Below, one piece after another: positions 27,807-55,424 of a stretch of 64,000 nucleotides of DNA. The DNA is taken from contig CAJAKC010000032.1 of the NCBI GenBank assembly GCA_903940225.1, positions 26,171 through 90,170 on the forward strand, given 5' to 3'. The notes under the pieces are model-generated. The model saw nothing but the letters and a program-made list of their open reading frames with translations, was not told where the DNA came from and ran no database searches. This DNA is from an uncultured Microbacteriaceae bacterium. GTDB taxonomy: Bacteria > Actinomycetota > Actinomycetes > Actinomycetales > Microbacteriaceae. How positions within the stretch are numbered: position 1 is the first letter of the stretch; every line of letters begins with the position of its first letter. Made by a program: the position numbers and the translations under genes.

Positions 27807-27809
27807 CGA

Positions 27810-27899: not shown

Positions 27900-27911
27900 G
27901 TTGGGGATAAA
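27900..27911 (+). promoter_or_regulatory. pilus/envelope box copy 1 (GTTGGGGATAAA)
   Basis: Box ends 38 nt before ATG 27950. CACAAT hexamer at 27938-27943, 6 nt before the ATG. Confidence 0.5.
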
Positions 27912-27949
27912 CATCGACGTGTGGTGGCAGGAATCGACACAATCGCGAC

Positions 27950-36202: not shown

Positions 36203-36219
36203 GCGTTTCCTTTCACCAG

Positions 36220-36299
36220 TGCGGGTGGAGGGACTCGAACCCACACGCCGAAGCACAGGATCCTAAATCCTGCGTGTCTACCAATTTCACCACACCCGC
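36220..36299 (-). tRNA. tRNA-Leu (anticodon TAG)
   Basis: Reverse complement GCGGGTG...CACCCGCA folds as a cloverleaf with anticodon loop TTTAGGA, an extended variable arm and T-arm GGGTTCGAGTCCC. CCA is not encoded. Confidence 0.85.
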
Positions 36300-36434
36300 T
36301 TGTTCCCTCAGTGTAATGGCAGTGCTTAAAGGCGTAGAGTGAATCCGTTCGTAAACACAGGATTTGCGGGTGGTTCGACCTCCGCAACACAGAACTCCGA
36401 CCGGCGATTTCGTCGGCGCGAAAGGAAGTAAACG

Positions 36435-37954: not shown

Positions 37955-39046
37955 ATGTCCGACACCGACACCGAGAGCGTCGTTGAGCGCGTCAGGGGAG
38001 CGGTGGCTCGCGGCGCCACTGTTCGCGATGCGATCGTCACGGAGGTTCGGTCTGCACACGAACGATCACTCGGAATGGCCGCCGGTCTCGACATCGATGA
38101 ACGCGCCGTATCGGAACGAGTCGACGGTTTCGGAGCACTGCAGCCGCTGTTGGATGATCCCACCATCGAGGAAATCTGGGTAAACGACGATTCGGCTGTC
38201 TTCGTTGCGCGCGCGGGAGTTCATGAGCGGCTAGATCGGAACATCGGTCGTGACGAGGTTCGCTCGCTCGTCGAACGAATGCTGCGGCGCACGGGCCGCC
38301 GAATCGACTATTCCCAACCGTTTGTCGACGCGTCGCTTCCCGACGGCTCCCGATTGCACGTTGTCATTCCTCCCATCACGCGCGAATCGTGGTCGGTCAA
38401 CATTCGAAAGTTTTCGCGTTCGTTACGGTCGCTCGATGATCTTGTCTCGGCGGGGACGCTGACCCAGGGTTCCGCGACGGTTCTGACCGACGCGGTTCGC
38501 GCGGGACTGACCGTGCTCGTCGCGGGCGCGACCCAAGCGGGCAAGACGACCATGCTGACCGCCTTGTGCGGGGTGCTGCCTTCGGGCGAGCGAATTGTCA
38601 CGGTGGAAGAGACGTTCGAACTCGCCCTGCCCAACAGCGATGTCGTCGGCATGCAGTGCCGAGGGCCGAGCCTGGAAGGCCTGGGCGAAGTAACCCTGCG
38701 TCGCTTGGTAAGAGAGACACTGCGCATGCGTCCGACGCGCATCGTCGTCGGTGAAGTCCGCGGAGACGAAGCCCTCGATCTTCTCGTCGCGCTCAATTCA
38801 GGGATTCCGGGTTTGTGCACGATCCATGCGAACTCGGCGGGGGATGCCGTCCGAAAACTCGCAACCCTGTGCCAACTCGCGGGGGGAATCTCGGCGGAAT
38901 TCGTCACCGCGACCATCGCCGCCACCGTTGACCTAGTGGTTCACTGCCAAATGGGGTCGGACGGGGTGCGCCGGGTCACCGATATCGCTCGGCCCACGGT
39001 GGGACCAGTAGGGATCGAAATGGAGTCGGTGTGGTCCCCGTCGTAA
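37955..39046 (+). CDS. tadA: TadA/CpaF-family type IV pilus (Tad) secretion ATPase
   Basis: Walker A GATQAGKTT, Walker B-like RIVVGEVRG, His box CTIHANS; length is typical of the short actinobacterial form. Confidence 0.85.
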   Translation: MSDTDTESVVERVRGAVARGATVRDAIVTEVRSAHERSLGMAAGLDIDERAVSERVDGFGALQPLLDDPTIEEIWVNDDSAVFVARAGVHERLDRNIGRDEVRSLVERMLRRTGRRIDYSQPFVDASLPDGSRLHVVIPPITRESWSVNIRKFSRSLRSLDDLVSAGTLTQGSATVLTDAVRAGLTVLVAGATQAGKTTMLTALCGVLPSGERIVTVEETFELALPNSDVVGMQCRGPSLEGLGEVTLRRLVRETLRMRPTRIVVGEVRGDEALDLLVALNSGIPGLCTIHANSAGDAVRKLATLCQLAGGISAEFVTATIAATVDLVVHCQMGSDGVRRVTDIARPTVGPVGIEMESVWSPS

Positions 39047-39870
39047 TCTCTCTCATTGCCGTGACGGGATTCTGTGTCCTGTTCACACGGTCCGTCCCGC
39101 GAATCAGCAAACCCCTTCGCGCGTGGCTCGATGAGTGCGGACTGGTCGGAACGTCGACGGGAGCCCTTGCGGTCGTGCTCGCGGTCCTGGCTCTGCTCGT
39201 GGCGGGACTGACGTCACTGTTCGTCCCCATCCCCGTCCTCGCCCCCATTGCGGCGATAGCGGGGCTGGCAATCCCGATTGCCACTCTGGATGCGGCGCGC
39301 ACTCGGCGTCGAGTTCTCGCGGAGGCGCGGTGGCCCGACATTCTTGACGCCATGCGGATGTCCATTCGAGCGGGTGCGCCACTACACGAATCGTTAGCAG
39401 CCGCGGCGGGGCAGATACCGCGCGAGTGGGCGACGTCGTGGAATCACGCCGTCACCGATCTGGCGCGCGGCGCAGCCGTCGAAAGCGCCATGCTCGGGCT
39501 AAGGGCCGATCGCGCCGACCCGATCGCAGACCGAGTGTGCGAATCAATCGTCATTGCCCACGAAATGGGGGGCACGGAACTGCCGCGAATTCTCGAGGAG
39601 TTGGCGCGGGCTGTTCGCGACGATCTGCGCGTACGGAGGGAAGCCACGGCGCGCCAATCCTGGGTGAGACACGCCGCGCGTCTCGGCTCGTGTGCACCGT
39701 GGGTTGTCGTCGTGATGCTGGGCAGTCGCGCCGAGAATCGTGAAGCATTCGCGAGCGCGGCGGGTGCAGCCCTCCTCGTCGCCTGCGCCGGAGCAACCGT
39801 GGTTGCCTACATCGTGATGACCGCGATGGGGCGACTGCCCGACCCACCGCGCTGGGTAGTCGATGATTGA
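39031..39870 (+). CDS. tadB: TadB-like type II secretion system F-family membrane protein
   Basis: Polytopic membrane protein directly after tadA with an overlapping start; T2SSF-like cytoplasmic domain. Confidence 0.65.
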   Translation: MVPVVISLIAVTGFCVLFTRSVPRISKPLRAWLDECGLVGTSTGALAVVLAVLALLVAGLTSLFVPIPVLAPIAAIAGLAIPIATLDAARTRRRVLAEARWPDILDAMRMSIRAGAPLHESLAAAAGQIPREWATSWNHAVTDLARGAAVESAMLGLRADRADPIADRVCESIVIAHEMGGTELPRILEELARAVRDDLRVRREATARQSWVRHAARLGSCAPWVVVVMLGSRAENREAFASAAGAALLVACAGATVVAYIVMTAMGRLPDPPRWVVDD

Positions 39871-40540
39871 GGCGGCACTCGGCGCAATGCTGGGACTTGG
39901 CATCTGGATACTTATCGATGGTTCACCGAAACTACGCCTCGCTGCTCGAATCGCACCGTATCTGCGCGACCTCTCACGGGCCGCTCGTCGGACATCCAGT
40001 GCTCGTGATCTGGTCGACGTGATTGTGGCACTGATTCCGCACCCTGTTCGATTCATCACCGACCTGTGGCGAAATCGCGCATCCGTGCGCCGTCGACTCA
40101 TCGACTCGGAACTGCCCGCCTTTCTTGACCGCGCGTCGGTGTGTCTGTCCGCAGGCCTCTCCATCCCCTCGACATTCGATCGTGTCGGTATCGATTCCGT
40201 CGGGATTCTTGGTCACGAGGCTCGCACGATTGCCCGCGAGCTCGGGGTGGGGGTCACGCTCGTCGACACGTGCACCGCGAGCGAACGCCGAGTTCGACAC
40301 GAATCCTGGTCGCGATTTATTGAGCACGTTCTCAGTGCGCGGCGCCACGGAACTCCGATCGCCGACATCGTCCGGTCGCTCGCGGCGGACGAACGCGCTG
40401 CAGCCGGGCGCCGATTGCTCGAGGCCGCGAGCTCGCGCGAAATCTACATGCTCATCCCACTCGTGTTTGTCATTCTGCCGATGACTGTACTTGTCGCCGT
40501 GTTCCCCGGCCTTGTCGCTCTCGCCTCACTTCCCGTGTAG
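39863..40540 (+). CDS. tadC: TadC-like type II secretion system F-family membrane protein
   Basis: ATGATTGA overlap with tadB; N- and C-terminal TM segments flank a soluble domain. Confidence 0.65.
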   Translation: MIEAALGAMLGLGIWILIDGSPKLRLAARIAPYLRDLSRAARRTSSARDLVDVIVALIPHPVRFITDLWRNRASVRRRLIDSELPAFLDRASVCLSAGLSIPSTFDRVGIDSVGILGHEARTIARELGVGVTLVDTCTASERRVRHESWSRFIEHVLSARRHGTPIADIVRSLAADERAAAGRRLLEAASSREIYMLIPLVFVILPMTVLVAVFPGLVALASLPV

Positions 40541-40565
40541 CGAGCGCTTCTGCCAGACTGGTCAC

Positions 40566-40973
40566 ATGACCAGTGCAAAGTCTCTCCTCATCGCCTCGCT
40601 GACACAGTTCGTCGCGGTCCTGTTCAGCCTCGGGGGTTGGATTGACCCCGTTCTGGGCGGAACATCCATCGTCGCGGCGCTCATTGTCAGTCTTGGTGCG
40701 ATGTTTATCGGTCGCGTTCGGATTCCCAAGTTGAACTGGATTTCCGTTACGGCAGCGGTAGTGCTCGCAGTGGGGGCGGTTGCCTCTTTGTTGGCGGCGT
40801 ACGACCCGAACGCAGGCGACGAGCAGTTGACCACCATCGCGTCAAGTCCTGCTGTGGTCGCGTTCAACATGGCATTCCGCGTAGCATCCGTTTCCGTCAT
40901 CGCGGGTGAAGTCTTCTATCTGGTCCTCATCGCCACCGCGTATCGGGCGGTCAAGTTGGCTGGGGATAAATAG
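40566..40973 (+). CDS. four-TM membrane protein of unknown function inside the Tad operon
   Basis: Internal ATG 40566 (MTSAKSLLIASL...) chosen. Four hydrophobic helices; no recognisable family. Confidence 0.45.
   Translation: MTSAKSLLIASLTQFVAVLFSLGGWIDPVLGGTSIVAALIVSLGAMFIGRVRIPKLNWISVTAAVVLAVGAVASLLAAYDPNAGDEQLTTIASSPAVVAFNMAFRVASVSVIAGEVFYLVLIATAYRAVKLAGDK
40959..40970 (+). promoter_or_regulatory. pilus/envelope box copy 2 (GCTGGGGATAAA)
   Basis: Overlaps the last codons of the 4-TM ORF. Ends 38 nt before ATG 41009. CACAGT hexamer at 40997-41002. Confidence 0.5.
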
Positions 40974-41008
40974 GGACACGTTCCCCTGCCGCACGGCACA
41001 GTGGCGGG

Positions 41009-41167
41009 ATGACACATTTCCCACACAACCCTGAGCGCGGCGATGTTCCCGGTTGGGTTCTCATCACCCTCATGACCGCCGGACTGGTCGTTGTCATTTG
41101 GGCCGTTGCCGGTCCCGCACTGAGTGGCGTTTTCGAATCCGCCATCAATCGGGTGGTCACGATGTGA
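41009..41167 (+). CDS. Flp-family / DUF4244-like small pilin (52 aa), not in the supplied ORF track
   Basis: Hand translation: MTHFPHNPERGDVPGWVLITLMTAGLVVVIWAVAGPALSGVFESAINRVVTM. Short polar leader, one hydrophobic helix. Sits between tadC and tadE; its ATGTGA end overlaps the GTG start of the next gene. Confidence 0.55.
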   Translation: MTHFPHNPERGDVPGWVLITLMTAGLVVVIWAVAGPALSGVFESAINRVVTM

Positions 41168-41544
41168 CTGCTCATCGTCAGCGCGGCAGCGCGGCGGTCG
41201 AGTTCGTCGGCGTTGGAGCGGTTGTCACGGCCTGTGCGCTGGGAATCCTGCAGGTCGGTGTCGTCTCCCACATCTCCGCGGTGTTGACCGATTCGGCGAT
41301 CGCCGGTGCCGCCTTTGGCGCTCTCGCCGATTCCTCGATGGCGGCGGGAATTGAGCGCACGCGCGAACTTGCGTCAGCGGGGATTGCTTCACGCTTCGTC
41401 GATGACGTCAGCGCGACCCAGACCACGGTGAGCGGTAAGCCGGTCATCACCGTCACCGTTCGATTTCGAGCACCGACCGTCGGCCCCTGGTTTCCGGCAA
41501 TTGTCTCGTCCGTGAGGGGTCGCGCCTTTGTGGAACTCCCCTGA
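41164..41544 (+). CDS. TadE-like pseudopilin
   Basis: In-frame GTG 41164 gives VTAHRQRGSAAVEFVGVGAVV..., the TadE N-terminal signature (RGSAAVEF plus a hydrophobic helix). Confidence 0.7.
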   Translation: MTAHRQRGSAAVEFVGVGAVVTACALGILQVGVVSHISAVLTDSAIAGAAFGALADSSMAAGIERTRELASAGIASRFVDDVSATQTTVSGKPVITVTVRFRAPTVGPWFPAIVSSVRGRAFVELP

Positions 41545-41550
41545 CACAGC

Positions 41551-41580
41551 GAAAGGGGCCCGGTTTCCCGAGCCCCTTTC
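41551..41580. terminator. bidirectional stem-loop between the TadE-like gene and the convergent permease gene
   Basis: GAAAGGGGCCCGG / CCGAGCCCCTTTC with a TTTC tetraloop and one mismatch. Confidence 0.6.
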
Positions 41581-41592
41581 GTGTTGCGTTGA

Positions 41593-43071
41593 CTACTTAC
41601 CAGCGCGCATCTTGCTTGCGACGGCGATGGCATCCGAGTACGGAGCCTTCGAGCGCAAGTGAGGACGTGCGATGAGCAGGTACAGGCCACCGGGGACCAG
41701 CACTGCCACCACCCCGATGAGCGAGATGTTGTCGATGAACCAGTCACCGCTTGCTCCGGGCTGGAGCAACCACGAGATTGCCCAGATTCCGTATGCGAGT
41801 GCCGCGATGTTGATGATGAGGCCGAACGAACCCAGTGACCAGGGTCCGGCAGGCTTCCATCCACGGAATCGCTGAATGAGCGACGCGAGGACGACCGACT
41901 GGAACGCGATGTAGATTCCGAGCACAGCGAATGCTGTGATGGGGACCAGTGACGCAGGGTTGACGTAGATGATCACGGCGAGCAACATGGGGACGACGCT
42001 CGCCACGATGAGTGCGTTCGTCGGAACCTTGCTGCGGTCCGAGATTTTGCTGAGCCATCCGCTGGCGGGCAGCATCTTGTCACGCGCAAACGAGTGCAGC
42101 AAGCGGCTTGCGGCTGCCTGCAGGCTCAAAACGCACGAGAGGAAGGCCACGACGGCGACGACGAGGAACAGACGAGCACCGGTCTCTCCCAGAACATCCG
42201 CGAGGATCGTTCCGATTGGGTCGGCGTTCTCTCCAGCCGCGGTAGCGGCGAGGAGTTCCGGCGAGGCGGCGAGAACATATCCCGAGAACGAGGCGAGTGC
42301 CGAGACGGCACCGACGATGATTGTCAGGTACATGGCCTTCGGTACTTCGCGAGCAGCGTCGCCAACTTCTTCGGCGACGTCACCACAGGCTTCGAAGCCG
42401 TAGAACATGAAAAGGCCGACGAGGGCCGCTCCCATGAACGCGGTGCCGTAATCAGCTGACGCGAAGCTATCGGTGAAGATGGTGAACTCGTTTTGGCGTT
42501 CGAAGATGAGCAGGTAAAGACCCAGTCCGACGACACCGACGAGTTCCGCACCGAGACCGATGGTCGCGATACGTCCGAGGGTTTTGGTTCCACCGAGGTT
42601 GATGACCAGTGCGACTGCGAGCAACGCAACCACCATAATCAGCGTGATTTCGGGGGTGAGTTCCGTCACGCCAAGAACCGTTGCAAGGAATCCGGTTGCG
42701 TATTCGGCAACCGAAGCGATCGTGACGAGCATCGCCCAGACGTACACCCATGCGGTGAGCCAGGCGCTCTGGCGACCGGCAAGGCGACGCATCCACGGGT
42801 AGATTCCACCAGCGATGGGGAACTGCGAGACGACCTCGCCCATTACCAGTGCGACGAGCATCTGGCCAGCGGCGACGATGAGAATCCAGAAGATGGATCC
42901 AGGTCCGCCGGTCATGAGCCCAAGACCGAACAGCGCGTAAATCGCGACGAGCGGCGACAGGTACGTGAACCCGAGTGCCAGAGTGCCCCATACGTTCATG
43001 GAGCGGTTGTAGTTGCTTTCGTATCCCAGCGCACTGAGTTGCGCGGAATCCGATTGTCCATTTTTAGACAT
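41593..43071 (-). CDS. APC-superfamily amino acid/amine permease
   Basis: 492 aa, about 12 TM helices, N-terminal polar segment then WGTLALGFTYLSP; general APC look. Confidence 0.8.
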   Translation of the reverse strand: MSKNGQSDSAQLSALGYESNYNRSMNVWGTLALGFTYLSPLVAIYALFGLGLMTGGPGSIFWILIVAAGQMLVALVMGEVVSQFPIAGGIYPWMRRLAGRQSAWLTAWVYVWAMLVTIASVAEYATGFLATVLGVTELTPEITLIMVVALLAVALVINLGGTKTLGRIATIGLGAELVGVVGLGLYLLIFERQNEFTIFTDSFASADYGTAFMGAALVGLFMFYGFEACGDVAEEVGDAAREVPKAMYLTIIVGAVSALASFSGYVLAASPELLAATAAGENADPIGTILADVLGETGARLFLVVAVVAFLSCVLSLQAAASRLLHSFARDKMLPASGWLSKISDRSKVPTNALIVASVVPMLLAVIIYVNPASLVPITAFAVLGIYIAFQSVVLASLIQRFRGWKPAGPWSLGSFGLIINIAALAYGIWAISWLLQPGASGDWFIDNISLIGVVAVLVPGGLYLLIARPHLRSKAPYSDAIAVASKMRAGK

Positions 43072-43244
43072 GGTGACCTTTCATTACGGTGATGAGGTCA
43101 GTCCGCGGGTTGCCCGTTGGAGTGCACCTCGTTGTGCAAGTGAAACGATAGTGCGTTTATTCGTTCAGTGGTAGATGATTCAGTTCGCAATTCCATTTGG
43201 CGTGTCGTTCGCACTTCCGATAGAGGAAAATAAAACCTTTGGTA

Positions 43245-43273
43245 TTGCATGATTTATAAAGTCGGCGTAGAAT
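43245..43273 (+). promoter_or_regulatory. sigma-70-like promoter TTGCAT-17 nt-TAGAAT upstream of the P450 operon
   Basis: Hexamers at 43245-43250 and 43268-43273, with a 17-nt spacer counted by hand, in an unusually AT-rich 257-nt divergent intergenic region. Confidence 0.45.
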
Positions 43274-43328
43274 CCTGACAACGCGACACCACCGGGCAAG
43301 CGCCCCTGAACAACGAGGTTCTGCACAT

Positions 43329-44522
43329 ATGTCTACTGACGTTGCGGTTCCCTATCTTGACATCTCGGATCCATCCTTCGCGATGCACTCCGAAGCCGTT
43401 CGAGCAGCGCGTGCCCAGCACTGGTTCGCGCGCACAAACTACGGTGTCGCGATCCTCCGCCACGAATACGTGTCGAAACTCCTCAAGGACCCGCGACTGC
43501 GCCAAGGCAGTGGCAAATGGCCCGACCACAACGGAGTCCACTCGGGACTCTTCTACGACTGGTGGACCCAGTGCCTCCTCGTGCTGGAGGGAGACGACCA
43601 CCACCGCATTCGCCGCCTACTCAATCCCGCATTCGCCCCCAAGCACCTCGAACCATTTCTGCCGCGCTTCGAGGCGCTCGCACGGGAACTCGTCAACGAC
43701 TTCATCGACAAGGGAGAACTCGAGTTCGTCAACGATTTCGCTGAGCCCTATGCGACCCGAGTTCTCTGCATCCTCCTCGGGATTCCCGAAAGCGAATGGC
43801 CCACCATCGCACGCCTGGCATCGACGATCGGGCTCGCGCTCGGTGTCACGCTCAAGCAAGACCTCGGTGTCGTTGAGGATGCCTTGGAAGAGCTTTACGG
43901 ATATGCCGAAAACCTCATCGCCGACCGTCAGGCAAACCGCGGTGATGATCTCGTCACAACGCTCGTTCAGGCAAACGCCAACGGAGACTCGCTCAGTGAT
44001 TCCGAATTGCGCAACGCCCTGTGCCTGCTGATATTCGGTGGCATGGACACGACACGAAACCAACTCGGACTCGGAATCATGTCCTACCTGCACAACCCCG
44101 ACCAGTGGGAGCTGCTCGCGAAGCACCCCGAGCTTGCGCGAAACGCCGTCGAAGAGATCATGCGCACCAACCCCACCACGACGTGGGTGACCCGCGAAGC
44201 GATGGTGGACTTCGATTACGAAGATTTGCGCGTCACCGCGGGGACGACGGTCCACTTCTTCACACAAGTGAGTGGCACCGACCCGGAAGCGTATCCGAAC
44301 CCCGAGATCGACATCACCGCCGAACGCGTTCCGCACTATGGATTTGGTGGCGGAATGCACCACTGCCTGGGCCACTTCGTTGCCCGCGCTGACATGGCAA
44401 TCGCGCTGACGGCGCTGTCCGAGCGAATGACGAACCTCCGGATAAGCGGCAAGGACGAATGGCTGCCGGACTCGGGGAACACCGGACCGGTCAGGCTTCC
44501 CATCGGCTTCGACAAACGCTAG
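43329..44522 (+). CDS. cytochrome P450 monooxygenase
   Basis: I-helix LIFGGMDTTRN, EEIMR (ExxR), heme loop FGGGMHHCLGHFVAR. Confidence 0.9.
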   Translation: MSTDVAVPYLDISDPSFAMHSEAVRAARAQHWFARTNYGVAILRHEYVSKLLKDPRLRQGSGKWPDHNGVHSGLFYDWWTQCLLVLEGDDHHRIRRLLNPAFAPKHLEPFLPRFEALARELVNDFIDKGELEFVNDFAEPYATRVLCILLGIPESEWPTIARLASTIGLALGVTLKQDLGVVEDALEELYGYAENLIADRQANRGDDLVTTLVQANANGDSLSDSELRNALCLLIFGGMDTTRNQLGLGIMSYLHNPDQWELLAKHPELARNAVEEIMRTNPTTTWVTREAMVDFDYEDLRVTAGTTVHFFTQVSGTDPEAYPNPEIDITAERVPHYGFGGGMHHCLGHFVARADMAIALTALSERMTNLRISGKDEWLPDSGNTGPVRLPIGFDKR

Positions 44523-44542
44523 ATTCCAACAAGGAGAAAACA

Positions 44543-44731
44543 ATGCAGATAAATGTCGATCGCACGAAGTGCGACAACCACGGGCAATGCACGTTCTCGG
44601 CGCCGACCGTTTTCCGCCTCGACGAGCAGGGAATCCTCCAACACGAAACCACCGCCGATGAGTCGCTTCGCCACGATGTCGAGGAAGCGGCGGATGTTTG
44701 TCCCGCTCAAGCGATAACCGTCACCGACTGA
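44543..44731 (+). CDS. small [3Fe-4S]-type ferredoxin (P450 redox partner)
   Basis: 62 aa from internal ATG 44543, preceded by AAGGAG. CDNHGQC...CP cluster motif (CxxHxxC...CP). Confidence 0.8.
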   Translation: MQINVDRTKCDNHGQCTFSAPTVFRLDEQGILQHETTADESLRHDVEEAADVCPAQAITVTD

Positions 44732-44769
44732 CGCCCCAACAACCCGATTAGGACGAAGGAGTCCACAAC

Positions 44770-46176
44770 ATGGCAAACAACATCGTGGTGAGTGCCCTCA
44801 CCGATAACGACGCCTTCCACAAGCATCAGGCCGCAAACATGCGGCCAGAGGTCGTCAAGGACCTCGAACAGAAGATTTCCGCGGCGGGTGTCGAGTTCAT
44901 CTATTACATGCTTCCCACCATCGGTTCGAAGGTTGTCGCCAAGATGGTTCCCGCCCACCACATCAAGCGCAACCTCGAAAAGGGCATCGCGCTGCACCGC
45001 ACCGCAGTCGCCGACCTGCAGTCCGACCGCGCCGGGAACCTGATCGGCGGAGGAATCGGCGCTCGCGAAATGATCGCACTCCCCGACCCAGAAACGTTCG
45101 TCGTTTTGCCCTGGGACACGTCGATTGCGCGGATGCTGTGTCGCGCCTACGAACCGACGCACTTCGCCGGTGTTGGTGGCCGACCGTTGCAGACCGACTC
45201 GCGCGGACTGTTGATGCGCGCGCACCAGGAATTCACGGAACGCACCGGTTATGAGGTGCGAAGCGGCACGGAGCCCGAAATGATGTGGGCCGGACCGGGA
45301 CTCGAGGTCATCAAGAAGGATGGCGCAAGTCCCGCCTACCAGGTTGAGAACCTCGAGCGGGCTCGTGAAATCTTCAAAAAGGTCATCCGCTACGCCACCG
45401 CGTTCGGCCTTGACATGGTCGAGGGCGACTATGAGGACGACGGGCAGTTGGAACTCAACTGGATGTTCGATCGAGTCGAGCTGACATCCGACCGGTTGGT
45501 CACGTATCGCCAAGTGTGCAAGCAGGTTGCCCGTGAATTGGGAATCACGGCGTCGTTTATGCCGAAGCCGTTCAACGGGCTGATGGGTAACGGTTGCCAC
45601 CACAACCTGTCGCTCTGGAAAGACGGCGTCAACGCGTGCATCGAACCGGGAAACACCGAGATTCACTTGTCCGAGGTTGGTCGCTGGGCGGTCGGTGGAA
45701 TGTTGACTCACGCTGCTGAATCGACCGCAATCATGGCGTCCACCGTGAACTCGTACAAACGATTCTGGGATGCCGGGCAGTTTGCACCGAGCTCACCGTC
45801 CTGGGGACTGGATTCACGCGAAGGGATGATTCGCATCTCGTCCATCGGGCGAATCGAGTACCGCCAACCCGATTCCAGTGTGAACCCCTACCTTTCCCAC
45901 ACGGCACTGCTGGCGTCGATCGAGGACGGACTCGCCCGCAAGATTGATGCGGGAGACCCACTCACGCAGGACGGAGCGAAGATCGCAAAGTTCGACGTCA
46001 TGCCGATGACGCTGGGTGATGCAATCGTCACGTTCGAGTCCAGCTCGATGCTGTCCACCGCTCTGCCCGAAGAAATGCGCAAGGTGTTCATCGACCTCAA
46101 ACGGGATGAATGGGCGCGTTATTGTGGTGTCATTACCGAATGGGAATTCAGCCAATACTGGGAGACGGTGCCGTGA
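44770..46176 (+). CDS. glutamine synthetase-family ligase, predicted gamma-glutamyl-amine synthetase
   Basis: 468 aa with GS beta-grasp and catalytic-domain patterns (EPEMMW, GNGCHHNLSLW, SWGLDSREGMIRI, RQPDSSVNPYL). Operonic with P450 and the gamma-glutamyl hydrolase. Confidence 0.8.
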   Translation: MANNIVVSALTDNDAFHKHQAANMRPEVVKDLEQKISAAGVEFIYYMLPTIGSKVVAKMVPAHHIKRNLEKGIALHRTAVADLQSDRAGNLIGGGIGAREMIALPDPETFVVLPWDTSIARMLCRAYEPTHFAGVGGRPLQTDSRGLLMRAHQEFTERTGYEVRSGTEPEMMWAGPGLEVIKKDGASPAYQVENLERAREIFKKVIRYATAFGLDMVEGDYEDDGQLELNWMFDRVELTSDRLVTYRQVCKQVARELGITASFMPKPFNGLMGNGCHHNLSLWKDGVNACIEPGNTEIHLSEVGRWAVGGMLTHAAESTAIMASTVNSYKRFWDAGQFAPSSPSWGLDSREGMIRISSIGRIEYRQPDSSVNPYLSHTALLASIEDGLARKIDAGDPLTQDGAKIAKFDVMPMTLGDAIVTFESSSMLSTALPEEMRKVFIDLKRDEWARYCGVITEWEFSQYWETVP

Positions 46177-46868
46177 TGAAAAAGTTGCGTTTGGCCTGTA
46201 TCGATTCGGCGGCACTGCCGCTGTTCGACGTAAGTCCTGATGGGGTCACTCGTGCGGGATACGAACCTGAGCTCGCCGGACTCGTTGCCGATGTGCTCGG
46301 ACTCGAGCTGGAATGGGTGTTCACCGCGTGGGACAACATGATTCCCATGGTTCGTGCGGGCGAGGCGGACGCGGTCTGGTGTGGTCAGGGGATGATCCCC
46401 GAACGCGCCGCGCTCGTCGACTTCACGCAGCCGTATGCGATCTTCAACGAGACGGTTGTCGTCCGCGCGGGCGACCCGGCCAGGGGCCCGGATTCCATGG
46501 CGGGCTACCGCGTCGGTGCCATCGCCAACAGTGCGAACCTCAAGGTTGCGCAGACCATTGTGGGTGCCGAGATTGTCGAGTTCGGCGCGACCGCCGATGT
46601 TTTCGCCGACATGATTGCGGCCCTTCGCAGCGGCGAAGTCGACGCGTTCGTGGATGATGATGTCGTGATGATTCCGCTCGGCGAAGACCCCGACTTTGAC
46701 GTCGCCTTCACCGCGGAAACGCGCAACCCCTGGGGGATTGGCGTGAAACCAGGAAACGCCGAACTTCTTGCTGACCTCAACCGCGCCCTTGACACTCTTC
46801 GCGCCGACGGTCGATTCAAGGCCGTCTGGGATAAATGGATGCCCACATTGGACTTCCCGCTGGGATAA
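46176..46868 (+). CDS. family-3 solute-binding-protein fold protein lacking a signal peptide
   Basis: ATG 46176 (MKKLRLACIDSAALPLFDV...). GYEPELAGLVADVLGLELEWVFTAWDNMIPMVRAGEADAVWCGQGMIPERAALVDFTQPY is the classical SBP_bac_3 pattern. No hydrophobic leader or lipobox. GTGATG and TAATG overlaps with the neighbouring genes. Confidence 0.65.
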   Translation: MKKLRLACIDSAALPLFDVSPDGVTRAGYEPELAGLVADVLGLELEWVFTAWDNMIPMVRAGEADAVWCGQGMIPERAALVDFTQPYAIFNETVVVRAGDPARGPDSMAGYRVGAIANSANLKVAQTIVGAEIVEFGATADVFADMIAALRSGEVDAFVDDDVVMIPLGEDPDFDVAFTAETRNPWGIGVKPGNAELLADLNRALDTLRADGRFKAVWDKWMPTLDFPLG

Positions 46869-47665
46869 TGGTGGGCATGGCCCATAACATCACTCCAGCC
46901 GACGTTTTGCCGGCGACGAATGACTCGATGCCGGCAGAAGCCCCAACCGTTGCCGTAGTCGTTTCGCTGAACATCCCCGAAATGACCGATGAGGTTGCGG
47001 GGCTTGTTGTGCGATTCACACGCGTAGCTCTCAAGGAAATCAACGACGTGGGCGCGCGAATTGTTCTGATGGATTCCAGTCGTGACGACCTGTCTGACGC
47101 CGACATCGCCGATCGGTGCGACGGAGTGTTGTTCCTGGGCGGCGGAGACGTCGACGCAACAATCTATGGTCACACCGAACCGGTGAATCATGAGTACGGA
47201 GTCTCGCGCGAAGCCGATGATTACTGCATCGACATCATCAAGTCTACGATCGACCGTGACGCACCGATGCTCTGCATTTGTCGCGGCTCGCAACTGCTCA
47301 ACGTTGCCCTCGGTGGGGATCTCATCCCCGATATCGAGGAGTACGCCCTGCACCGCGGCGGCGCCGGCGACCCCATGTTCAAGGACGAAAACGTGACGCT
47401 CGAACCGGGAAGCAAGATTCGCGAGATTTTGGGGCGTGACACCGTCGCCGTTCGATCAGGCCACCATCAGGCTGTTCGGCGCGTTGCCGAGGGGCTGGTC
47501 GTGTCGGCTCGTGCCGATGACGGGGTCGTCGAAGGCACCGAACTTCCCAGTGCTCGTTGGGTTGTCGGAGTGCAGTGGCACCCGGAAGACGACGACGGCT
47601 CGGCGAGCGATCGACGCAAGCTCTTTCAGTCCTTCGTCGACGAAGTGAAGCTGGCGCGCGTCTAA
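46868..47665 (+). CDS. gamma-glutamyl-gamma-aminobutyrate hydrolase family (PuuD-like, peptidase C26, class I amidotransferase fold)
   Basis: ICRGSQLLNVALGG (nucleophile Cys) and VQWHPE (His/Glu). Start set at ATG 46868, overlapping the upstream TAA. Confidence 0.8.
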   Translation: MVGMAHNITPADVLPATNDSMPAEAPTVAVVVSLNIPEMTDEVAGLVVRFTRVALKEINDVGARIVLMDSSRDDLSDADIADRCDGVLFLGGGDVDATIYGHTEPVNHEYGVSREADDYCIDIIKSTIDRDAPMLCICRGSQLLNVALGGDLIPDIEEYALHRGGAGDPMFKDENVTLEPGSKIREILGRDTVAVRSGHHQAVRRVAEGLVVSARADDGVVEGTELPSARWVVGVQWHPEDDDGSASDRRKLFQSFVDEVKLARV

Positions 47666-48363
47666 AACGTTTCGCGCGGAACGGTGACGAGCCGCAACCC
47701 GAGTTCGTGGACCGGCAGGTCAATCGCGTGAGCCGTTGCCGGTAGTTCGCCGACACGATTTCCCACGAGGAATTTGCCGGAGTTTCCGAGGAGGATTCGA
47801 CCAGTGTTTGTCACGAGAGCGGCATCGGCGTCAATGCGGCGAAGCAGCGCCATCAGTGCAGATTCCAGCGAGCGAATTTCGATGTCGCAGCCGGCCGCGC
47901 CGATGATATTTCCGTCGAGCCGAAAGGGGACCGTAACCGTGATGATGTACTTGTCCATTCCCAGATAGTCGACGTAGGGTCCGGTGAGTGTTGGGCGTCC
48001 CGTGTCGACGACGTTTCGAAACCACTCAAGACTCTCGAAATCGTAGAAGCCAGCGGTTTGCGGGTTGAGCGTCACCAGCAAACGACTTGTGGTGTTGCCG
48101 GTCGCGCGAACCCACCACTCGACAGCACCCTCGACTCCGACGATTCCCGGTTGAATCACGACGCCGGCACCTTCGCACACGCGGTGCTTGCCGAGGAAAG
48201 CCTCAGCGGCGGGTTTCACCGCGAGAAAATCCTGTGTGGCGAGAGGAGGACGACCACCCGCGCCCTGAAGTGTCCGCTCGACACCCCGTGCGAGTTCATC
48301 GAGGTCGGAGTAGACGTCAGTGAACCAGGCGGTTAGTCCCTCGACAATTTCTGTTGTGATCAC
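47662..48363 (-). CDS. soluble Cache/PDC-fold ligand-binding domain protein with no output domain
   Basis: 233 aa, no TM segment. TLTGPYVDYLGMDKYIITVTVPF and IGAAGCDIEI resemble Cache-domain core strands. GTGA overlap with the upstream GntR gene. Confidence 0.55.
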   Translation of the reverse strand: MITTEIVEGLTAWFTDVYSDLDELARGVERTLQGAGGRPPLATQDFLAVKPAAEAFLGKHRVCEGAGVVIQPGIVGVEGAVEWWVRATGNTTSRLLVTLNPQTAGFYDFESLEWFRNVVDTGRPTLTGPYVDYLGMDKYIITVTVPFRLDGNIIGAAGCDIEIRSLESALMALLRRIDADAALVTNTGRILLGNSGKFLVGNRVGELPATAHAIDLPVHELGLRLVTVPRETF

Positions 48364-49163
48364 CTCGCACCACCCGTCGGGTACATCGAGTTGAGCCGGT
48401 GTTCAACGATGCGGTAGGTGTTTCGTGTGATGTGCTCGCGCACTCCACTCTGTGCGGCGGTGACATCGCCCTTGCGCAGTGCCGCAACGATCGCGCGATG
48501 GTCGGCCGCCGCCCATGCGCGGTCGGCGGTGGGATCGAGGACCGACCACAGAATCTCGGCGGATTCGCTCAGCAAGCGCATTTCGGTCTGGACGAGTCGC
48601 TCGGATTGGGCAAGGACCGCGAGCTCGATGTGGAATCGCGAATCGGCCCACACACACGCCTCGGTGGAATCGGCAGCCCCAACCAGCCCGGCGATCGCCT
48701 CGAGCCGATCAAAATCGTGGTCGGACGCGCGTTCGACCGCCAGCCGCACTGCCGCCATCCCGTTCGATGCTTGTTCGTCCGACATATCGCGCAATTCCGC
48801 CATCGACAGGTTGACGAGTCTCGTGAGGAGCTGGTCTGCGTTCGGCACCGGGGTGCCGACGATGAACGTGCCGCCACTTCGTCCACGACGGGTTTCGATA
48901 ATCCCCTGGTCGCGAAGCGTTTGGAGTGCGTCACGGACGGTTGCAGTCGCGACTCCGAACATGGCGGTGAGTTTGTTTTCGGCCGGGAGTTTTTCACCGT
49001 GTCGAAGCAGCCCAAGAATTATGGCGGTCGTGAGTCGGTCGACGATGGCGTCTGCTCGGAGAACGTCGGGAAGTGGTCTGAAGACCTGCGACTGCACCCC
49101 GGAGAGCTGACCCACTGTGAACCTGACCTGTCTTCGGACGATTCGACGAATCGTTGTTGTCAC
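48360..49163 (-). CDS. GntR-family transcriptional regulator with FCD (FadR C-terminal) domain
   Basis: wHTH LPAENKLTAMFGVATATVRDALQTLRDQGIIETRRGRSGGTFIV followed by an all-helical FCD-like domain. Confidence 0.85.
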   Translation of the reverse strand: MTTTIRRIVRRQVRFTVGQLSGVQSQVFRPLPDVLRADAIVDRLTTAIILGLLRHGEKLPAENKLTAMFGVATATVRDALQTLRDQGIIETRRGRSGGTFIVGTPVPNADQLLTRLVNLSMAELRDMSDEQASNGMAAVRLAVERASDHDFDRLEAIAGLVGAADSTEACVWADSRFHIELAVLAQSERLVQTEMRLLSESAEILWSVLDPTADRAWAAADHRAIVAALRKGDVTAAQSGVREHITRNTYRIVEHRLNSMYPTGGAR

Positions 49164-49224
49164 GCTACTAAATAATCCCGCATCCGTAAATCATTCAGAC
49201 CCGAACGAGTAGCAGAATAGAGAT

Positions 49225-50592
49225 ATGCCTTATGCAACAACCAACCCCGCCACCGGAGTCGTCGAGCGCGAGTTTCCGAGTGCAACGTCCGCAGACGTTG
49301 CCGCCGCAATTTCTCGCGCTCACAGCGCTCACGTGGAATGGCGTGAGTGGAGCGTCACGGACCGCGCCAAGGTGCTCGCCACCGTTGCCGCGCTGTACGA
49401 CGAGCGCAAAGAGGAGCTCGCCGACATCATTGCGCGCGAAATGGGTAAGCCCGTCCGCCAGGGTCGCGGCGAAGCGTGGTTCGCCGGTGAGATTTACAAG
49501 TTTTATGCCGAGCACGGCCCAGCGCACCTCGTTGACGAAGACCTCCACCCGATGTCGGGAGGACAGGCCATTGTTCGCTCGGCACCACTCGGAGTTCTTC
49601 TCGGAATCATGCCCTGGAATTATCCGTACTACCAGGTCGCTCGATTCGCCGGCCCGAACCTTTTGCTGGGAAACACCATCCTCCTCAAGCACGCGAGCAA
49701 CTGCCCCGAGTCTGCCCTGGCGCAAGAGAAACTCTTCCGTGACGCCGGATTACCTGACGGCGCGTACATCAATCTGTTTGTGGACTCGAAAGACATCGAA
49801 GCGGTCATCGCTGATCCGCGCGTTCACGGCGTTTCACTGACGGGTTCGGAAAAAGCGGGAGCCGCCGTTGCGGCAGCCGCCGGACGTTCGCTCACCAAGG
49901 TCGTGCTGGAACTCGGCGGCAGTGATCCGTTCATTGTTCTTGACGACAGCAACCTCGACGAGACCGTTGCGGCGGCGGCATCGGGTCGCATGAGCAATGC
50001 GGGTCAGGCGTGCACAGCGGCCAAAAGATTCATCATTCTCGATTCTGTGTACGACCGGTTCATTGAGGCGTTCGCGGCGAAGCTAAAGACCTACGTTGCC
50101 GGCGACCCGCTCGACCCCGGGACGAACTTCGGTCCACTGTCGTCCTATTCCGCTGTCGTCGAATTGTTGGAACAGGTCGAAGACGCCGTGAGCAAAGGCG
50201 CGACACTCGTCACGGGCGGTCACCGAATCGGCGAGGTCGGCGCTTTCATGGAACCGACGCTCCTCGCAAACGTCACGCCCGACATGAGGGCATTCCACGA
50301 AGAATTGTTTGGACCCGTCGCCGTTGTCTATCGCGTCACGGACAAGGATGAGGCGATTGCCCTGGCGAACGCCTCGGAGTTTGGACTGTCGGCAGCGGTG
50401 TTTGGTTCCGACGCGAACGACACTCGGTACGTGGCCGACCGACTCGACTGCGGAATGGTCTACATCAACGAAAACACGGACTCGCACGTCGATCTGCCGT
50501 TCGGGGGAGTCAAGAAGTCGGGCTTCGGGCGCGAACTCGGCAAGTTCGGGTTTGACGAGTTCGTCAACAAAAAGCTCATCCGCACCTCGTAG
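49225..50592 (+). CDS. NAD(P)-dependent aldehyde dehydrogenase (455-aa GabD-like clade)
   Basis: VLELGGSDPF (Glu), NAGQACTAAKRF (Cys), EELFGPV. Confidence 0.85.
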   Translation: MPYATTNPATGVVEREFPSATSADVAAAISRAHSAHVEWREWSVTDRAKVLATVAALYDERKEELADIIAREMGKPVRQGRGEAWFAGEIYKFYAEHGPAHLVDEDLHPMSGGQAIVRSAPLGVLLGIMPWNYPYYQVARFAGPNLLLGNTILLKHASNCPESALAQEKLFRDAGLPDGAYINLFVDSKDIEAVIADPRVHGVSLTGSEKAGAAVAAAAGRSLTKVVLELGGSDPFIVLDDSNLDETVAAAASGRMSNAGQACTAAKRFIILDSVYDRFIEAFAAKLKTYVAGDPLDPGTNFGPLSSYSAVVELLEQVEDAVSKGATLVTGGHRIGEVGAFMEPTLLANVTPDMRAFHEELFGPVAVVYRVTDKDEAIALANASEFGLSAAVFGSDANDTRYVADRLDCGMVYINENTDSHVDLPFGGVKKSGFGRELGKFGFDEFVNKKLIRTS

Positions 50593-50603
50593 CTGGGGAT
50601 AAA
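50592..50603 (+). promoter_or_regulatory. pilus/envelope box copy 3 (GCTGGGGATAAA)
   Basis: Starts at the last base of the ALDH stop codon. Ends 38 nt before GTG 50642. GACGAT hexamer at 50630-50635. Confidence 0.5.
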
Positions 50604-50641
50604 GCGCACGAGCGTCGGAGCGGCCAACCGACGATGGTGGC

Positions 50642-51067
50642 GTGCAGCCGTCAGAACGTGGATCCGCAAGCCTCGAGTTTGTGGTCGTCGCGCTCGGAGT
50701 ACTGATTCCGATACTCGCGGTAACGGTGTCGACAACCGCAATTCAGCACGCGCAATTCGCTACCACCGAGATTTCCCGGCAAGGCGTGCGCGCTCTCGCG
50801 CTCGCCGCAAACACGACCGCGGGCAACCGTGCGATTCGTCGCATCGCCCGGCTCACACTCGCCGATTTCGGCATAACCCAATCCGCGCGATTCACGATTG
50901 CGTGCACTCCGCAGCCCTGTGGCGGTTACGGGTCGCTCTATCGGTTGACCACGACCGTCACGGTTCCCCTCGCGATGATTCCCGCGCTTCCCGGTCTCGA
51001 CGTGCTCACGCGAATCCCGGTTTCGGCGACCGCCACCCACCGAGCACCGCTGCCGGTGACGCCGTGA
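50642..51067 (+). CDS. TadE-like pseudopilin
   Basis: N-terminus (M)QPSERGSASLEFVVVALGVLIPIL is the TadE signature. Confidence 0.65.
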   Translation: MQPSERGSASLEFVVVALGVLIPILAVTVSTTAIQHAQFATTEISRQGVRALALAANTTAGNRAIRRIARLTLADFGITQSARFTIACTPQPCGGYGSLYRLTTTVTVPLAMIPALPGLDVLTRIPVSATATHRAPLPVTP

Positions 51068-51477
51068 GCGAAAAGGGATCGATACTTCCCCTCGTGGCGG
51101 GGTTGCTCGCGTTGTGCGGGGTTTTTGTCGTCGCGGCCGTGGACTCGACCGACCTCGCCATTGCCCGGACGCAATTGCAGTCGATTGCCGACGGAGCCGC
51201 ACTGGCAGCGGCACAGTCGATCACCCCGGGCAACGCGACGGTTTCGAACGACCGGCTGGTTATCGCACTCACGCCGGCGACGATCCGAAGCGCGGCGCGG
51301 CAGTATGTTCGCGACACGGCCGTGCCCGGAGTCCGACTGAGTGCGGCAACCACGCCAGACGGTCGAACCGCCATCGTCACCGTGACTCGCGTCTGGCGCG
51401 CACCCATCGACAGCGACTTGCTTCCGCTTCGACTGCGGCTGACCGCAACCGCCCGCGCGCGAACCATCTTCGGTTGA
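51064..51477 (+). CDS. TadE/Rv3654c-family pilus assembly protein
   Basis: In-frame GTG 51064 (GTGA overlap) gives VSEKGSILPLVAGLLALCGVFVVAAVDSTDLAIARTQLQSIADGAALAAA, the remembered Rv3654c-family pattern. Confidence 0.6.
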   Translation: MSEKGSILPLVAGLLALCGVFVVAAVDSTDLAIARTQLQSIADGAALAAAQSITPGNATVSNDRLVIALTPATIRSAARQYVRDTAVPGVRLSAATTPDGRTAIVTVTRVWRAPIDSDLLPLRLRLTATARARTIFG

Positions 51478-51502
51478 GGGCGTTCGATAGTCTGGTGTTC
51501 TC

Positions 51503-54486: not shown

Positions 54487-54957
54487 ATGCCACGGGAAGA
54501 GGGCGAGAAAATCGTCGCGTCGAATCGCAAGGCGCGCCACGACTTCCACATCGAGGACACGTTTGAGTGCGGCCTCGTTCTGACCGGTACCGAAGTCAAG
54601 GCGCTGCGCCTGGGCAAAGCGTCGCTCGTTGACGGGTGGGCGCAAATCGTTGATGGTGAAATGTGGATGGAATCTGTCCACATCCCCGAGTACACCCAGG
54701 GCACGTGGACGAACCACGCGACCCGTCGCAAACGCAAACTGTTGCTGCACCGTGCCGAGATCGTCAAAATTTCGCACCGTGTCAAAGATGGCGGATACAC
54801 GCTCGTCCCGTTGAAGATTTATTTCCTGGACGGACGCGCCAAAGTCGAACTGGCTATTGCCAAGGGCAAGAAGGATTACGACAAGCGCCAGACGCTCAAA
54901 GAGCGCGAAGACAAGCGCGAAGCAGATCGCGCGATGAAATCGAAGACGTACCGGTAA
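54487..54957 (+). CDS. smpB: SsrA-binding protein
   Basis: [29 protein letters not shown] and the basic C-terminal tail; adjacent to the tmRNA. Confidence 0.92.
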
Positions 54958-55050
54958 GGAATAAATCGTCACTGGTCAGACTTACACTAGAGAAGTCGCA
55001 ATCGCGACGACTGAAAACTCCATAGCGTGGAATGTGACCCGCCCCCACTT

Positions 55051-55424
55051 GGGGATGATCGGTTTCGACAGTGTGTTCTAAGTCGGAGAGAAGCGGGTCG
55101 AGGATGCAGGGTTATCTCGTTAACGCCCCTTGCAAACCAATAGGTGCCAACGCTAAGCGCACCGACTTCGCTCTCGCCGCCTAATAAGCCGCTATCGAAG
55201 TCCGTCAGACCGGGTTCGCCTTCGACCCGGACCCTGGCGCAATTGAGAAGGCTTGCTGTTGCCCCGTGTTTCAGGAGGTAGCAGGACATTTACTGAGACT
55301 GGGCTTGTCGATCTAGGTGCCTCAACCAAAGTTCGGAGCCGAGTAGAACGATTGTGAGGATACACCCGTAGAAGACTTCGGCTGTTCATATTGGACGGGG
55401 GTTCAATTCCCCCCATCTCCACCA
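55051..55424 (+). ncRNA. ssrA: tmRNA (ssrA)
   Basis: 5' GGGGATGATCGGTTTCGAC and 3' GGACGGGGGTTCAATTCCCCCCATCTCCACCA form the tRNA-like domain. Tag ORF GCC AAC GCT AAG CGC ACC GAC TTC GCT CTC GCC GCC TAA TAA at 55146-55187 encodes ANAKRTDFALAA. Confidence 0.88.

Follow-up and report, generated by a model that had tools for sequence, protein, structure and literature searches.

A cytochrome P450 gene cluster of the pip/mor type in a freshwater Microbacteriaceae bacterium, with a predicted route for amine catabolism through gamma-glutamyl amides

The window analysed here, a stretch of 64,000 nucleotides (nt) of a freshwater Microbacteriaceae chromosome (contig CAJAKC010000032.1), carries nine genes at positions 41593-50592, and the locus raises the question of what process would be served jointly by a permease, a cytochrome P450, a ferredoxin, a glutamine synthetase (GS)-like ligase, a GlnH-like binding-fold protein, a Peptidase_C26 (C26) hydrolase, a dCache protein, a GntR regulator and an aldehyde dehydrogenase (ALDH). 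All nine genes, as listed in a preliminary description of this DNA, were found at the same positions by open reading frame (ORF) calling and by Pfam and NCBIfam searches. Judged by these genes and their order, the cluster is of the pip/mor (CYP151-type) cyclic-amine catabolic type, known from Mycobacterium and related bacteria, and it adds a member to that type rather than being a new system. On the basis of homology, synteny, residue patterns and the transcriptome of a homologous cluster, we consider it rather probable that the products act in the order permease, ligase, P450, ring opening, ALDH and C26 hydrolase, under amine control by the GntR regulator and the dCache protein. By analogy with the relatives described below, the most likely substrate would be a saturated cyclic secondary amine such as pyrrolidine, piperidine or azepane.

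The P450 gene (43329-44522, forward strand) encodes a protein of 397 amino acids (aa) with a Pfam p450 match, the haem loop FGGGMHHCLG and the I-helix motif GGMDTT, and was placed in the pip/mor (CYP151-like) group. Its product is 62-63% identical to the P450 of Gulosibacter molinativorax and 58-59% identical to those encoded by L057 and L069, two loci from Mycobacterium, and its closest solved structure is AurH (3p3l, 236 bits). It was tied to PipA and MorA not by direct alignment but through the published identities of the Gulosibacter P450 paralogues 'bioI' and 'pipA', which are 51.6-53% identical to PipA of M. smegmatis (AAD28344) and MorA of Mycobacterium sp. HE5 (PMC9477822). The window P450 is presumed to be the hydroxylase of a gamma-glutamyl amide. 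The ferredoxin gene (44543-44731, forward strand) begins 20 nt past the P450 stop codon and encodes 62 aa of the [3Fe-4S] type (Pfam Fer4_15, 2.6e-13) with only three Cys residues (C10xxH13xxC16...C53P), and the pattern CxxHxxC..CP with three Cys recurs in 52 of 59 ferredoxin homologues. This ferredoxin is presumed to be the electron donor to the P450.

The gene orders of the two Mycobacterium loci are P450-ferredoxin-ferredoxin reductase-GS (L069) and P450-ferredoxin-GS (L057), both together with GlnH-like, dCache, C26 and permease genes. We take these orders to match the published morABC-orf1' and pipA-orf1-orf2', respectively. The order pipR-pipA(CYP151A1)-ferredoxin-GS' was reportedly described for M. 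smegmatis by Poupin et al. in 1999, and the order morA-morB-morC-GS' is said to have been described for Mycobacterium sp. HE5 by Sielaff and Andreesen in 2005. In common with the pip/mor loci, the window has a GntR regulator in the cluster and the gene series P450, small [3Fe-4S]-type ferredoxin, GS-like ligase. It differs from them in its position within a tad pilus locus of a freshwater Microbacteriaceae chromosome, in having one C26 copy and, compared with mor, in having no dedicated reductase (MorC equivalent).

The redox partners vary among the relatives, which use either a ferredoxin and a ferredoxin reductase or a reductase and a flavodoxin; the ferredoxin-only arrangement was seen in the freshwater clade of the window and in Mycobacterium sp. 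21AC1 (L057). When three reductases from the clusters and one flavodoxin were used as tblastn queries, no homologue was detected in the 64-kb window (best E 0.13). A Pfam survey of the same 64 kb found no aminotransferase or other pathway genes outside the cluster, and the preliminary description had likewise noted that both a ferredoxin reductase and an aminotransferase are missing. Since no reductase lies in the 64 kb, the P450 must rely on one encoded elsewhere, and since the reductase is likewise missing in the close freshwater relatives and in L057, the window fits the pip-type arrangement. On plasmid p2 of Paracoccus sp. TOH (L089), a P450 52.6% identical to that of the window occurs with two GS-family, two C26/glutamine amidotransferase (GATase) and two ALDH genes. 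The redox partner of this P450, a CysJ-like flavoprotein reductase, would add a third type to the two above.

For the estimation of conservation, an alignment of ten P450 relatives was used to scan one genome per species, and 543 stretches were found to encode a P450 relative. The best 80 of these 543 stretches and five loci from contig look-ups were combined as a set of 85 loci (P450 identity 56-97%), against which the nine window proteins were searched by tblastn; most absences fall on short contigs. The GS-like gene was present in 71 of the 85 loci, the APC permease and the GlnH-like gene in 70 each, dCache and GntR in 64 each, C26 in 62, ferredoxin in 60 and an ALDH of the window type in 41, with a different ALDH type in many of the other loci. 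C26 usually occurs in two copies in the relatives and in one in the window. The GlnH-like gene stands immediately 3' of the GS-like gene in 70/70 loci that have it, and in all 64 loci gntR is directly followed by a dCache gene of like orientation; these two units are never split, even in rearranged clusters. The nine-gene arrangement is far beyond chance. It provides a consistent nine-part list for a pathway that had earlier been described piecemeal (P450, regulator and truncated GS gene).

A reading in which the genes serve no single pathway, with a spare GS for nitrogen, a P450 acting on an unrelated substrate or a biosynthetic gamma-glutamyl carrier chemistry, is highly improbable given a syntenic set with invariant sub-units in more than 60 loci. 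The best NCBIfam models of the P450 are natural-product types, which would suit it, and all of them score far under cut-off; besides a permease and an amine-sensing repressor module, the cluster encodes a hydrolase and an ALDH, and it lacks any biosynthetic core enzyme. Two further results bear on this reading, one from the ligase and one from a Gulosibacter transcriptome.

The ligase gene (44770-46176, forward strand; 468 aa; Gln-synt_C 1.3e-72) misses all NCBIfam equivalog cut-offs, namely TIGR00653 for type I GS (227.9/429), TIGR03105 for type III (279.4/469.6), PRK09469 (103.9/845) and the PuuA-type NF045547 (217.3/650). Alignment with GlnA and PuuA shows no change at the residues for metal, ATP and glutamate binding (in E. 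coli numbering E129, E131, E220, H269, R321, R344 and E357), so the ligase is predicted to be an active GS-fold enzyme. The flap residue Glu327 is replaced by Phe (GQFAP) in four of four cluster ligases, Ser53 is replaced by Leu, and the Tyr397 adenylylation region is unconserved. With Glu327 replaced and every equivalog cut-off missed, the ligase is by its sequence features not a true glutamine synthetase; the alternative that it is one, considered in the preliminary description as a possible refutation, was thus not borne out, and the spare-GS form of the reading above loses ground with it. The enzyme is presumed instead to be a gamma-glutamyl-amine (amide) synthetase. Among solved structures the closest are two gamma-glutamylmethylamide synthetases, 7cql (GmaS) and 9qur (a Glu-methylamine ligase). 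Both act on methylamine, which lends something to an acyclic alternative: the amine that is glutamylated would be a polyamine (compare Puu and GlnA3), ethanolamine (compare GlnA4) or a primary alkylamine (compare Ipu), and the P450 would hydroxylate or oxidatively deaminate the gamma-glutamyl-alkylamide. We regard this alternative as unlikely: the PuuA-type score is far under cut-off, and the Ser53 to Leu and Glu327 to Phe replacements suggest a hydrophobic amine pocket.

The substrates recorded for homologous P450s point to cyclic amines. Induction of PipA during growth on piperidine has been reported, with morpholine, piperidine and pyrrolidine listed as substrates in a table (PMC9477822). 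Molinate, from whose breakdown an azepane ring results, induced the 'bioI' cluster (GMOLON4_433-441) of Gulosibacter molinativorax ON4T (Lopes et al. 2022, PMC9477822), with log2 fold changes of 7.50 for the permease ('puuP'), 6.84 for a GATase, 5.85 for the flavodoxin, 7.44 for the reductase and 6.10 for the P450 (Table S8), and of 6.29 for the GS, 7.06 for a 'hypothetical protein' whose gene takes up the GlnH-like position, 6.74 for the C26 and 5.39 for a second GATase gene (PMC9477822). The co-induction amounts to 40- to 180-fold. The substrates linked by experiment to the P450 homologues are only pyrrolidine, piperidine, morpholine and an azepane-yielding herbicide, which tells against the acyclic alternative; for it may be said that piperidine-type compounds may rarely reach freshwater Microbacteriaceae. 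Co-induction of a homologous cluster on a catabolic substrate also tells against the absence of a single pathway, for which it can be cited that the Gulosibacter authors took the GS gene as serving ammonium assimilation and proposed no glutamylation (PMC9477822). The Gulosibacter locus (L005) is like the window in its GS-like, GlnH-like, C26 and ALDH order and in its permease and GntR-dCache pair, and unlike it in having a reductase and flavodoxin module in place of the ferredoxin and two C26 genes. Its genes carry the labels BioI, nitric oxide synthase, FprA and glutamine synthetase.

The remaining enzymes and the permease can be fitted to the preferred route as follows. The APC-superfamily permease (41593-43071, reverse strand; 492 aa; AA_permease_2 1.4e-38) has as its top NCBIfam models the urea-carboxylase-associated permease and the 2A0304 subfamily, both under cut-off, and is presumed to be the amine importer; the family also moves choline, ethanolamine and substrates of the gamma-aminobutyric acid (GABA) type, which would suit an acyclic substrate as well. 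After import, the GS-like ligase would join the amine to glutamate at the expense of ATP, giving a gamma-glutamyl amide (N5-substituted glutamine). The CYP151-like P450 would hydroxylate the carbon adjoining the amide nitrogen, with electrons supplied via the [3Fe-4S] ferredoxin and a reductase from outside the window, and the carbinolamide would open to a gamma-glutamyl-omega-amino-aldehyde. This aldehyde would be oxidised to the gamma-glutamyl-omega-amino acid by the NAD(P)-dependent ALDH (49225-50592, forward strand; 455 aa; Aldedh 2.1e-138; ELGG and GQAC motifs), which is presumed to have this role. The class-I glutamine amidotransferase-type gamma-glutamyl hydrolase of the Peptidase_C26 family (46835-47665, forward strand; 2.1e-46; CRG and HPE motifs) would finally release glutamate and an amino acid, e.g. 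GABA or 5-aminovalerate. The probable start of the C26 gene is the ATG at 46868 (265 aa), which overlaps the stop codon of the GlnH-like gene. Expression from the two divergent promoter regions would be governed by the GntR/FCD regulator and the translationally coupled dCache protein in response to the free amine.

The layout of the genes is in keeping with two such regions, as the permease gene is divergent from the P450 operon and the ALDH gene is divergent from gntR, while the gntR-dCache pair is convergent with the P450 operon. The forward-strand genes lie close together. Overlaps of 1 nt (TGATG) between the ligase and GlnH-like genes, of 1 nt (TAATG) between the GlnH-like and C26 genes and of 4 nt (GTGA) between gntR and the dCache gene were found, the GlnH-like gene being read as translationally coupled to the ligase gene, and AAGGAG-type ribosome-binding sites precede the ferredoxin and ligase genes.

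Several points weigh against this route. All evidence for the present locus and organism is sequence-based; the P450 system is incomplete as encoded, with no ferredoxin reductase in the cluster or window; the ALDH is SSADH-like (succinate-semialdehyde dehydrogenase-like) rather than PuuC-like, with SSADH-type models as its best NCBIfam matches (under cut-off, 505/730), and is the least conserved part (41/85); and the operator motifs are weak, with no consensus sigma-70 promoter found in 41000-51500 by a promoter scan. In Gulosibacter, the 'pipA' cluster, which has the GntR-dCache pair, was not significantly induced on molinate (PMC9477822). Lastly, purified recombinant MorA together with ferredoxin and reductase oxidised free morpholine according to PMC9477822, which cites Sielaff and Andreesen, and this would place the P450 before glutamylation. 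The result supports a P450-first alternative, in which the free cyclic amine is hydroxylated, the ring opens to give an amino-aldehyde or amino acid and the ligase glutamylates the resulting primary amine in the manner of PuuA, so as to protect it or to channel it through ALDH and C26; the free-amine type of the dCache pocket is compatible with it and fits either order. Late glutamylation would be chemically awkward, however, as an omega-amino-aldehyde cyclises spontaneously to the imine, which is why the Puu pathway glutamylates first. In Pseudomonas sp. KU43P, PipA is reported to make gamma-glutamylpiperidide, which is then hydroxylated by the P450 PipBa (Yamamoto, Iwaki and co-workers, about 2020), and this lead would also place glutamylation ahead of the P450. 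The pip cluster of KU43P, which belongs to a different phylum, reportedly shares the logic of a GS-like enzyme followed by a P450 and has gamma-glutamyl hydrolase and ALDH genes. The strict ligase-GlnH-like-C26 unit and the amino-acid-binding fold of the GlnH-like protein fit intermediates that are glutamylated throughout, and on balance we judge the P450-first order to be quite unlikely.

Glutamylation as the first step links the preferred route with the E. coli Puu pathway, which likewise has a permease, a GS-like ligase, an ALDH, a C26 hydrolase and a dedicated regulator, and in which the amine is masked, oxidised and then released by hydrolysis. The Puu pathway alone has the flavin adenine dinucleotide (FAD) oxidase PuuB and the aminotransferase PuuE, of which no equivalents were found in the cluster or in the rest of the window; the window has the P450 and ferredoxin for PuuB, a GntR/FCD regulator and dCache protein against PuuR, and the GlnH-like protein as an extra. 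The identities of the window proteins to PuuA, PuuD and PuuC are 25%, 30% and 32%, respectively, and the equivalog scores for PuuD (62.3/266) and PuuC (243.6/850) both miss their cut-offs, so the resemblance is one of logic and protein families and not of orthology. The one-to-one Puu map drawn in the preliminary description therefore holds at the level of family and logic and fails as orthology. Its broader reading, an N-glutamylation cluster with a P450 and ferredoxin in place of PuuB and with kinship to the mycobacterial P450 loci, is supported by the synteny in more than 60 loci, the identity of the Gulosibacter P450s to PipA, the co-induction of a paralogous Gulosibacter cluster, the ligase residues and missed cut-offs and the three-Cys ferredoxin.

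Two further systems, likened here by description only, share a GS-like ligase that produces a gamma-glutamyl amide, namely the Ipu pathway of Pseudomonas sp. KIE171, whose oxidant is reportedly a multicomponent monooxygenase, and the GlnA3/GlnA4 pathways of Streptomyces coelicolor (gamma-glutamyl-polyamine and -ethanolamide, respectively). The latter oxidise by dehydrogenases, unlike the P450 of the window. In both, the gamma-glutamyl amide from the GS-like ligase is oxidised and later hydrolysed (PMC1713258). If the preferred route is correct, the P450 and glutamylation route for cyclic or small amines would be extended to the abundant freshwater Microbacteriaceae.

The GlnH-like gene (46176-46868, forward strand; 230 aa; Pfam SBP_bac_3 2.7e-27) and the dCache gene had been set aside in the preliminary description as extras without a counterpart in known pathways; instead, both are conserved core parts of the cluster (70/85 and 64/85 loci, respectively). 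The AlphaFold 2 (AF2) model of the GlnH-like protein (predicted local distance difference test (pLDDT) 91.7) is a closed amino-acid-binding protein, and its top Foldseek matches are the Arg/Gln-binding AncQR, AncCDT-1, GlnBP and Glu-binding proteins, with TM-scores of 0.85-0.87. Three residues precede its first strand, none of the 33 aligned homologues has a leader like the 22-residue ones of GlnH and HisJ, and the Kyte-Doolittle maximum is 1.42. No ATP-binding cassette (ABC) transporter genes were found in the cluster at any locus examined, and a role as a periplasmic ABC-transporter component was rejected on the absence of a signal peptide and of neighbouring ABC permease or ATPase genes. 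The GlnBP residues D10, R75 and D157, which bind the alpha-amino and alpha-carboxylate groups, are invariant in the GlnH-like proteins, as are C8 and C69, and K115 is replaced by Ile. The retention of D10, R75 and D157 together with the absence of a signal peptide gives independent support for an amino-acid-headed (glutamylated) intermediate, and we infer that the protein may bind the glutamyl head of the gamma-glutamyl amide.

The GlnH-like protein might act as a carrier, a hand-off protein or a ring-opening catalyst. It is a tentative and rather doubtful proposal that the protein is a hitherto unrecognised cytoplasmic part of gamma-glutamylation, which carries the N5-substituted glutamine from the ligase to the P450 or opens the hydroxylated ring; the latter idea is likened to cyclohexadienyl dehydratase, which evolved from an amino-acid-binding protein. 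If it were true, two extracytoplasmic ligand-binding folds, those of the GlnH-like and dCache proteins, would have been repurposed inside the cell. No fusion of the ligase and GlnH-like genes was seen in 70 loci. No published pathway scheme that explains the cytoplasmic GlnH-like protein was found, and this conserved and co-induced protein is therefore flagged here. In public records, its signal-less homologues (P0121-P0240) are called 'periplasmic' or 'ABC transporter substrate-binding protein'. Annotations such as these, together with glutamine synthetase, BioI and nitric oxide synthase, lead to a systematic misreading of the clusters.

The dCache gene (47662-48363, reverse strand) encodes a stand-alone dCache_1/PDC protein of 233 aa (Pfam MCP-like_PDC_1 43.8 bits, dCache_1 44.4 bits), whose AF2 model (pLDDT 84.5) is a complete double-PDC dCache_1 domain. 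Its best Foldseek matches are McpU (putrescine), TlpQ (histamine), CqsR (ethanolamine) and PctC (GABA), with an E value of 5e-12; the putrescine, histamine and ethanolamine sensors among them can also be counted for the acyclic alternative. Relative to PctA, R126 corresponds to an invariant Leu112, W128 to W114, Y129 to F115, Y144 to Y130 and D173 to D160. Loss or retention of the carboxylate-binding Arg separates amine sensors from amino-acid sensors, and the amine motif consists of the lost Arg, the retained aromatic pair and terminal Asp, and the equivalents of R103, D133, W155, M215 and S217 (PMC10589655). The window protein was compared with this motif at the Arg, aromatic and Asp positions.

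The protein has no transmembrane segment or output domain (Kyte-Doolittle maximum 1.16, versus 2.74 for the permease). A dCache profile search of 1.84 billion representatives gave 532 clusters at E <= 1e-10, and among the top 150 clusters most members are stand-alone proteins of about 225-260 aa, with about 18 of 466-530 aa. All ten long relatives tested (P0285, P0290, P0307, P0320, P0324, P0335, P0347, P0352, P0361 and P0413) are GntR-FCD-dCache fusions and represent ten or more separate clusters at 50% identity, and the Arthrobacter ruber cluster (L019, 17315-18892) holds one such fusion. Long dCache ORFs in two other loci (L072 and L083) were rejected as fusions, being frame artefacts of high-GC DNA. 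The lack of a hydrophobic segment and the fusions with GntR indicate that the dCache protein is cytoplasmic and a partner of the GntR regulator, for which, by its residues and model, it is presumed to be the amine sensor. The regulator itself (48360-49163, reverse strand; Pfam GntR 2.2e-16, FCD 2.5e-18) is of the FadR subfamily and PipR-like; with the alternative start GTG at 49115 it would have 251 aa.

The dCache protein is not put forward as a novel intracellular Cache sensor, as such sensors were already described in 2023 by Cerna-Vargas et al., with an operon of a stand-alone intracellular dCache and a transcription factor in Actinobacteria (PMC10589655). The window system is like theirs in having a membrane-free dCache_1 protein encoded directly after a GntR/FCD gene in an actinobacterium. 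In the available part of that paper the dCache/GntR pair is not tied to a P450/GS-like catabolic cluster, and for GntR-FCD-dCache fusions there is no more than a hint, in that GntR and FCD are listed in the legend of its Fig. 4 (PMC10589655). With the present cluster, the published intracellular dCache amine sensor gains a concrete regulon.

Candidate operators were sought in the two divergent regions. In the permease/P450 promoter region, the motif TAAATCAT(T/G)CA occurs in two inverted copies with 1-2 mismatches (43172-43182 and 43246-43256). The gntR/ALDH region (49138-49197) contains the palindrome ACGATTCGACGAATCGT (49138-49154), which the long gntR start would place within the ORF, and an exact TAAATCATTCA upstream of ALDH (49187-49197). 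With up to 2 mismatches allowed, TAAATCATTCA has five matches in the window, three of them within these two intergenic regions of the cluster; the motif is not enriched window-wide (5 found versus 6.9 expected). Blocks of the permease/P450 intergenic region are conserved in relatives, and the sequence of the gntR/ALDH region is conserved in close relatives. The TAAATCATTCA-type copies and the palindrome ACGATTCGACGAATCGT are candidate operators of low confidence, and since the count of TAAATCATTCA is at chance, the proposal rests on position and conservation only. A hand-read TTGCAT-17-TAGAAT at 43245-43273 was rejected as a promoter, since it fails the criterion of the scan. A search for short inverted repeats with default settings gave nothing useful in the two intergenic regions, and no riboswitch or other Rfam element was found in the cluster.

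The cluster type is widespread, since the P450 scan had matches in at least 543 genomes, and its hosts include Arthrobacter, Leucobacter, Gulosibacter, Streptomyces, Rhodococcus, Mycobacterium, Nocardioides and others. It also reaches halophilic Gammaproteobacteria, with P450 identities of 60-61% in Aidingimonas, Chromohalobacter and Litchfieldella. Six halophilic gammaproteobacterial loci (L037, L039, L041, L043, L055 and L061), whose hosts also include Arhodomonas and an Ectothiorhodospiraceae metagenome-assembled genome, encode P450s 58-61% identical to that of the window; GS-like, GlnH-like, dCache and GntR genes are also present in the four longest of them (L037, L039, L041 and L043), and no C26 homologue was detected by tblastn in these loci. 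They point to transfer of the cluster between phyla.

A separate observation concerns plasmid pGKT2 of Gordonia sp. KTR9 (L088, 156809-163820), which encodes a P450 56% identical to that of the window, an FCD regulator and a cache-domain protein, directly behind which lie genes for an FAD oxidoreductase and a P450 of 552 aa. The last two are presumably the RDX-degradation proteins XplB and XplA, respectively. The genes for degradation of the explosive RDX appear to have been grafted onto a pip/mor-type cluster in this plasmid.

The cluster is embedded in a tad (Flp pilus) locus, with genes for a TadA-like T2SSE protein, two T2SSF proteins and a TadE-like protein upstream (37955-41544) and TadE/G-like genes downstream (50642-51477), followed by prfB, ftsEX, smpB and the transfer-messenger RNA (tmRNA) gene. 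Relatives whose P450s are at least about 70% identical share this context. A GC-rich hairpin (41550-41581; 14-nt arms, 93% complementary, and a 4-nt loop), found by an inverted-repeat search between the convergent tadE-like and permease genes, is likely a bidirectional terminator that would bound the cluster on its left. The G+C content of the cluster is in line with that of the neighbourhood, and no insertion scars, flanking repeats, tRNA or integrase were found at its borders, so the cluster is not called a mobile island.

The suggestion that a gabD gene at 36435 processes the GABA further found no support: the SSADH-like gene there (TIGR01780 578/646, under cut-off), which has tRNA-Leu(tag) directly upstream (36219-37895 for both), lies in conserved backbone beyond the tad genes, and no aminotransferase accompanies it. 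Farther downstream, smpB and then the tmRNA gene (55051-55424, tag peptide ANAKRTDFALAA) occupy 54487-55424 as housekeeping context. At the other side of the window, the G+C content falls to 54-56% (versus about 60%) over 19048-28000, starting right after tRNA-Met (19048-19124), and the genes there encode a polysaccharide pyruvyl transferase, two CDP-glycerol glycerophosphotransferases and two IspD-like cytidylyltransferases (cell-wall glycopolymer), so that this region looks like a variable surface-polymer island.

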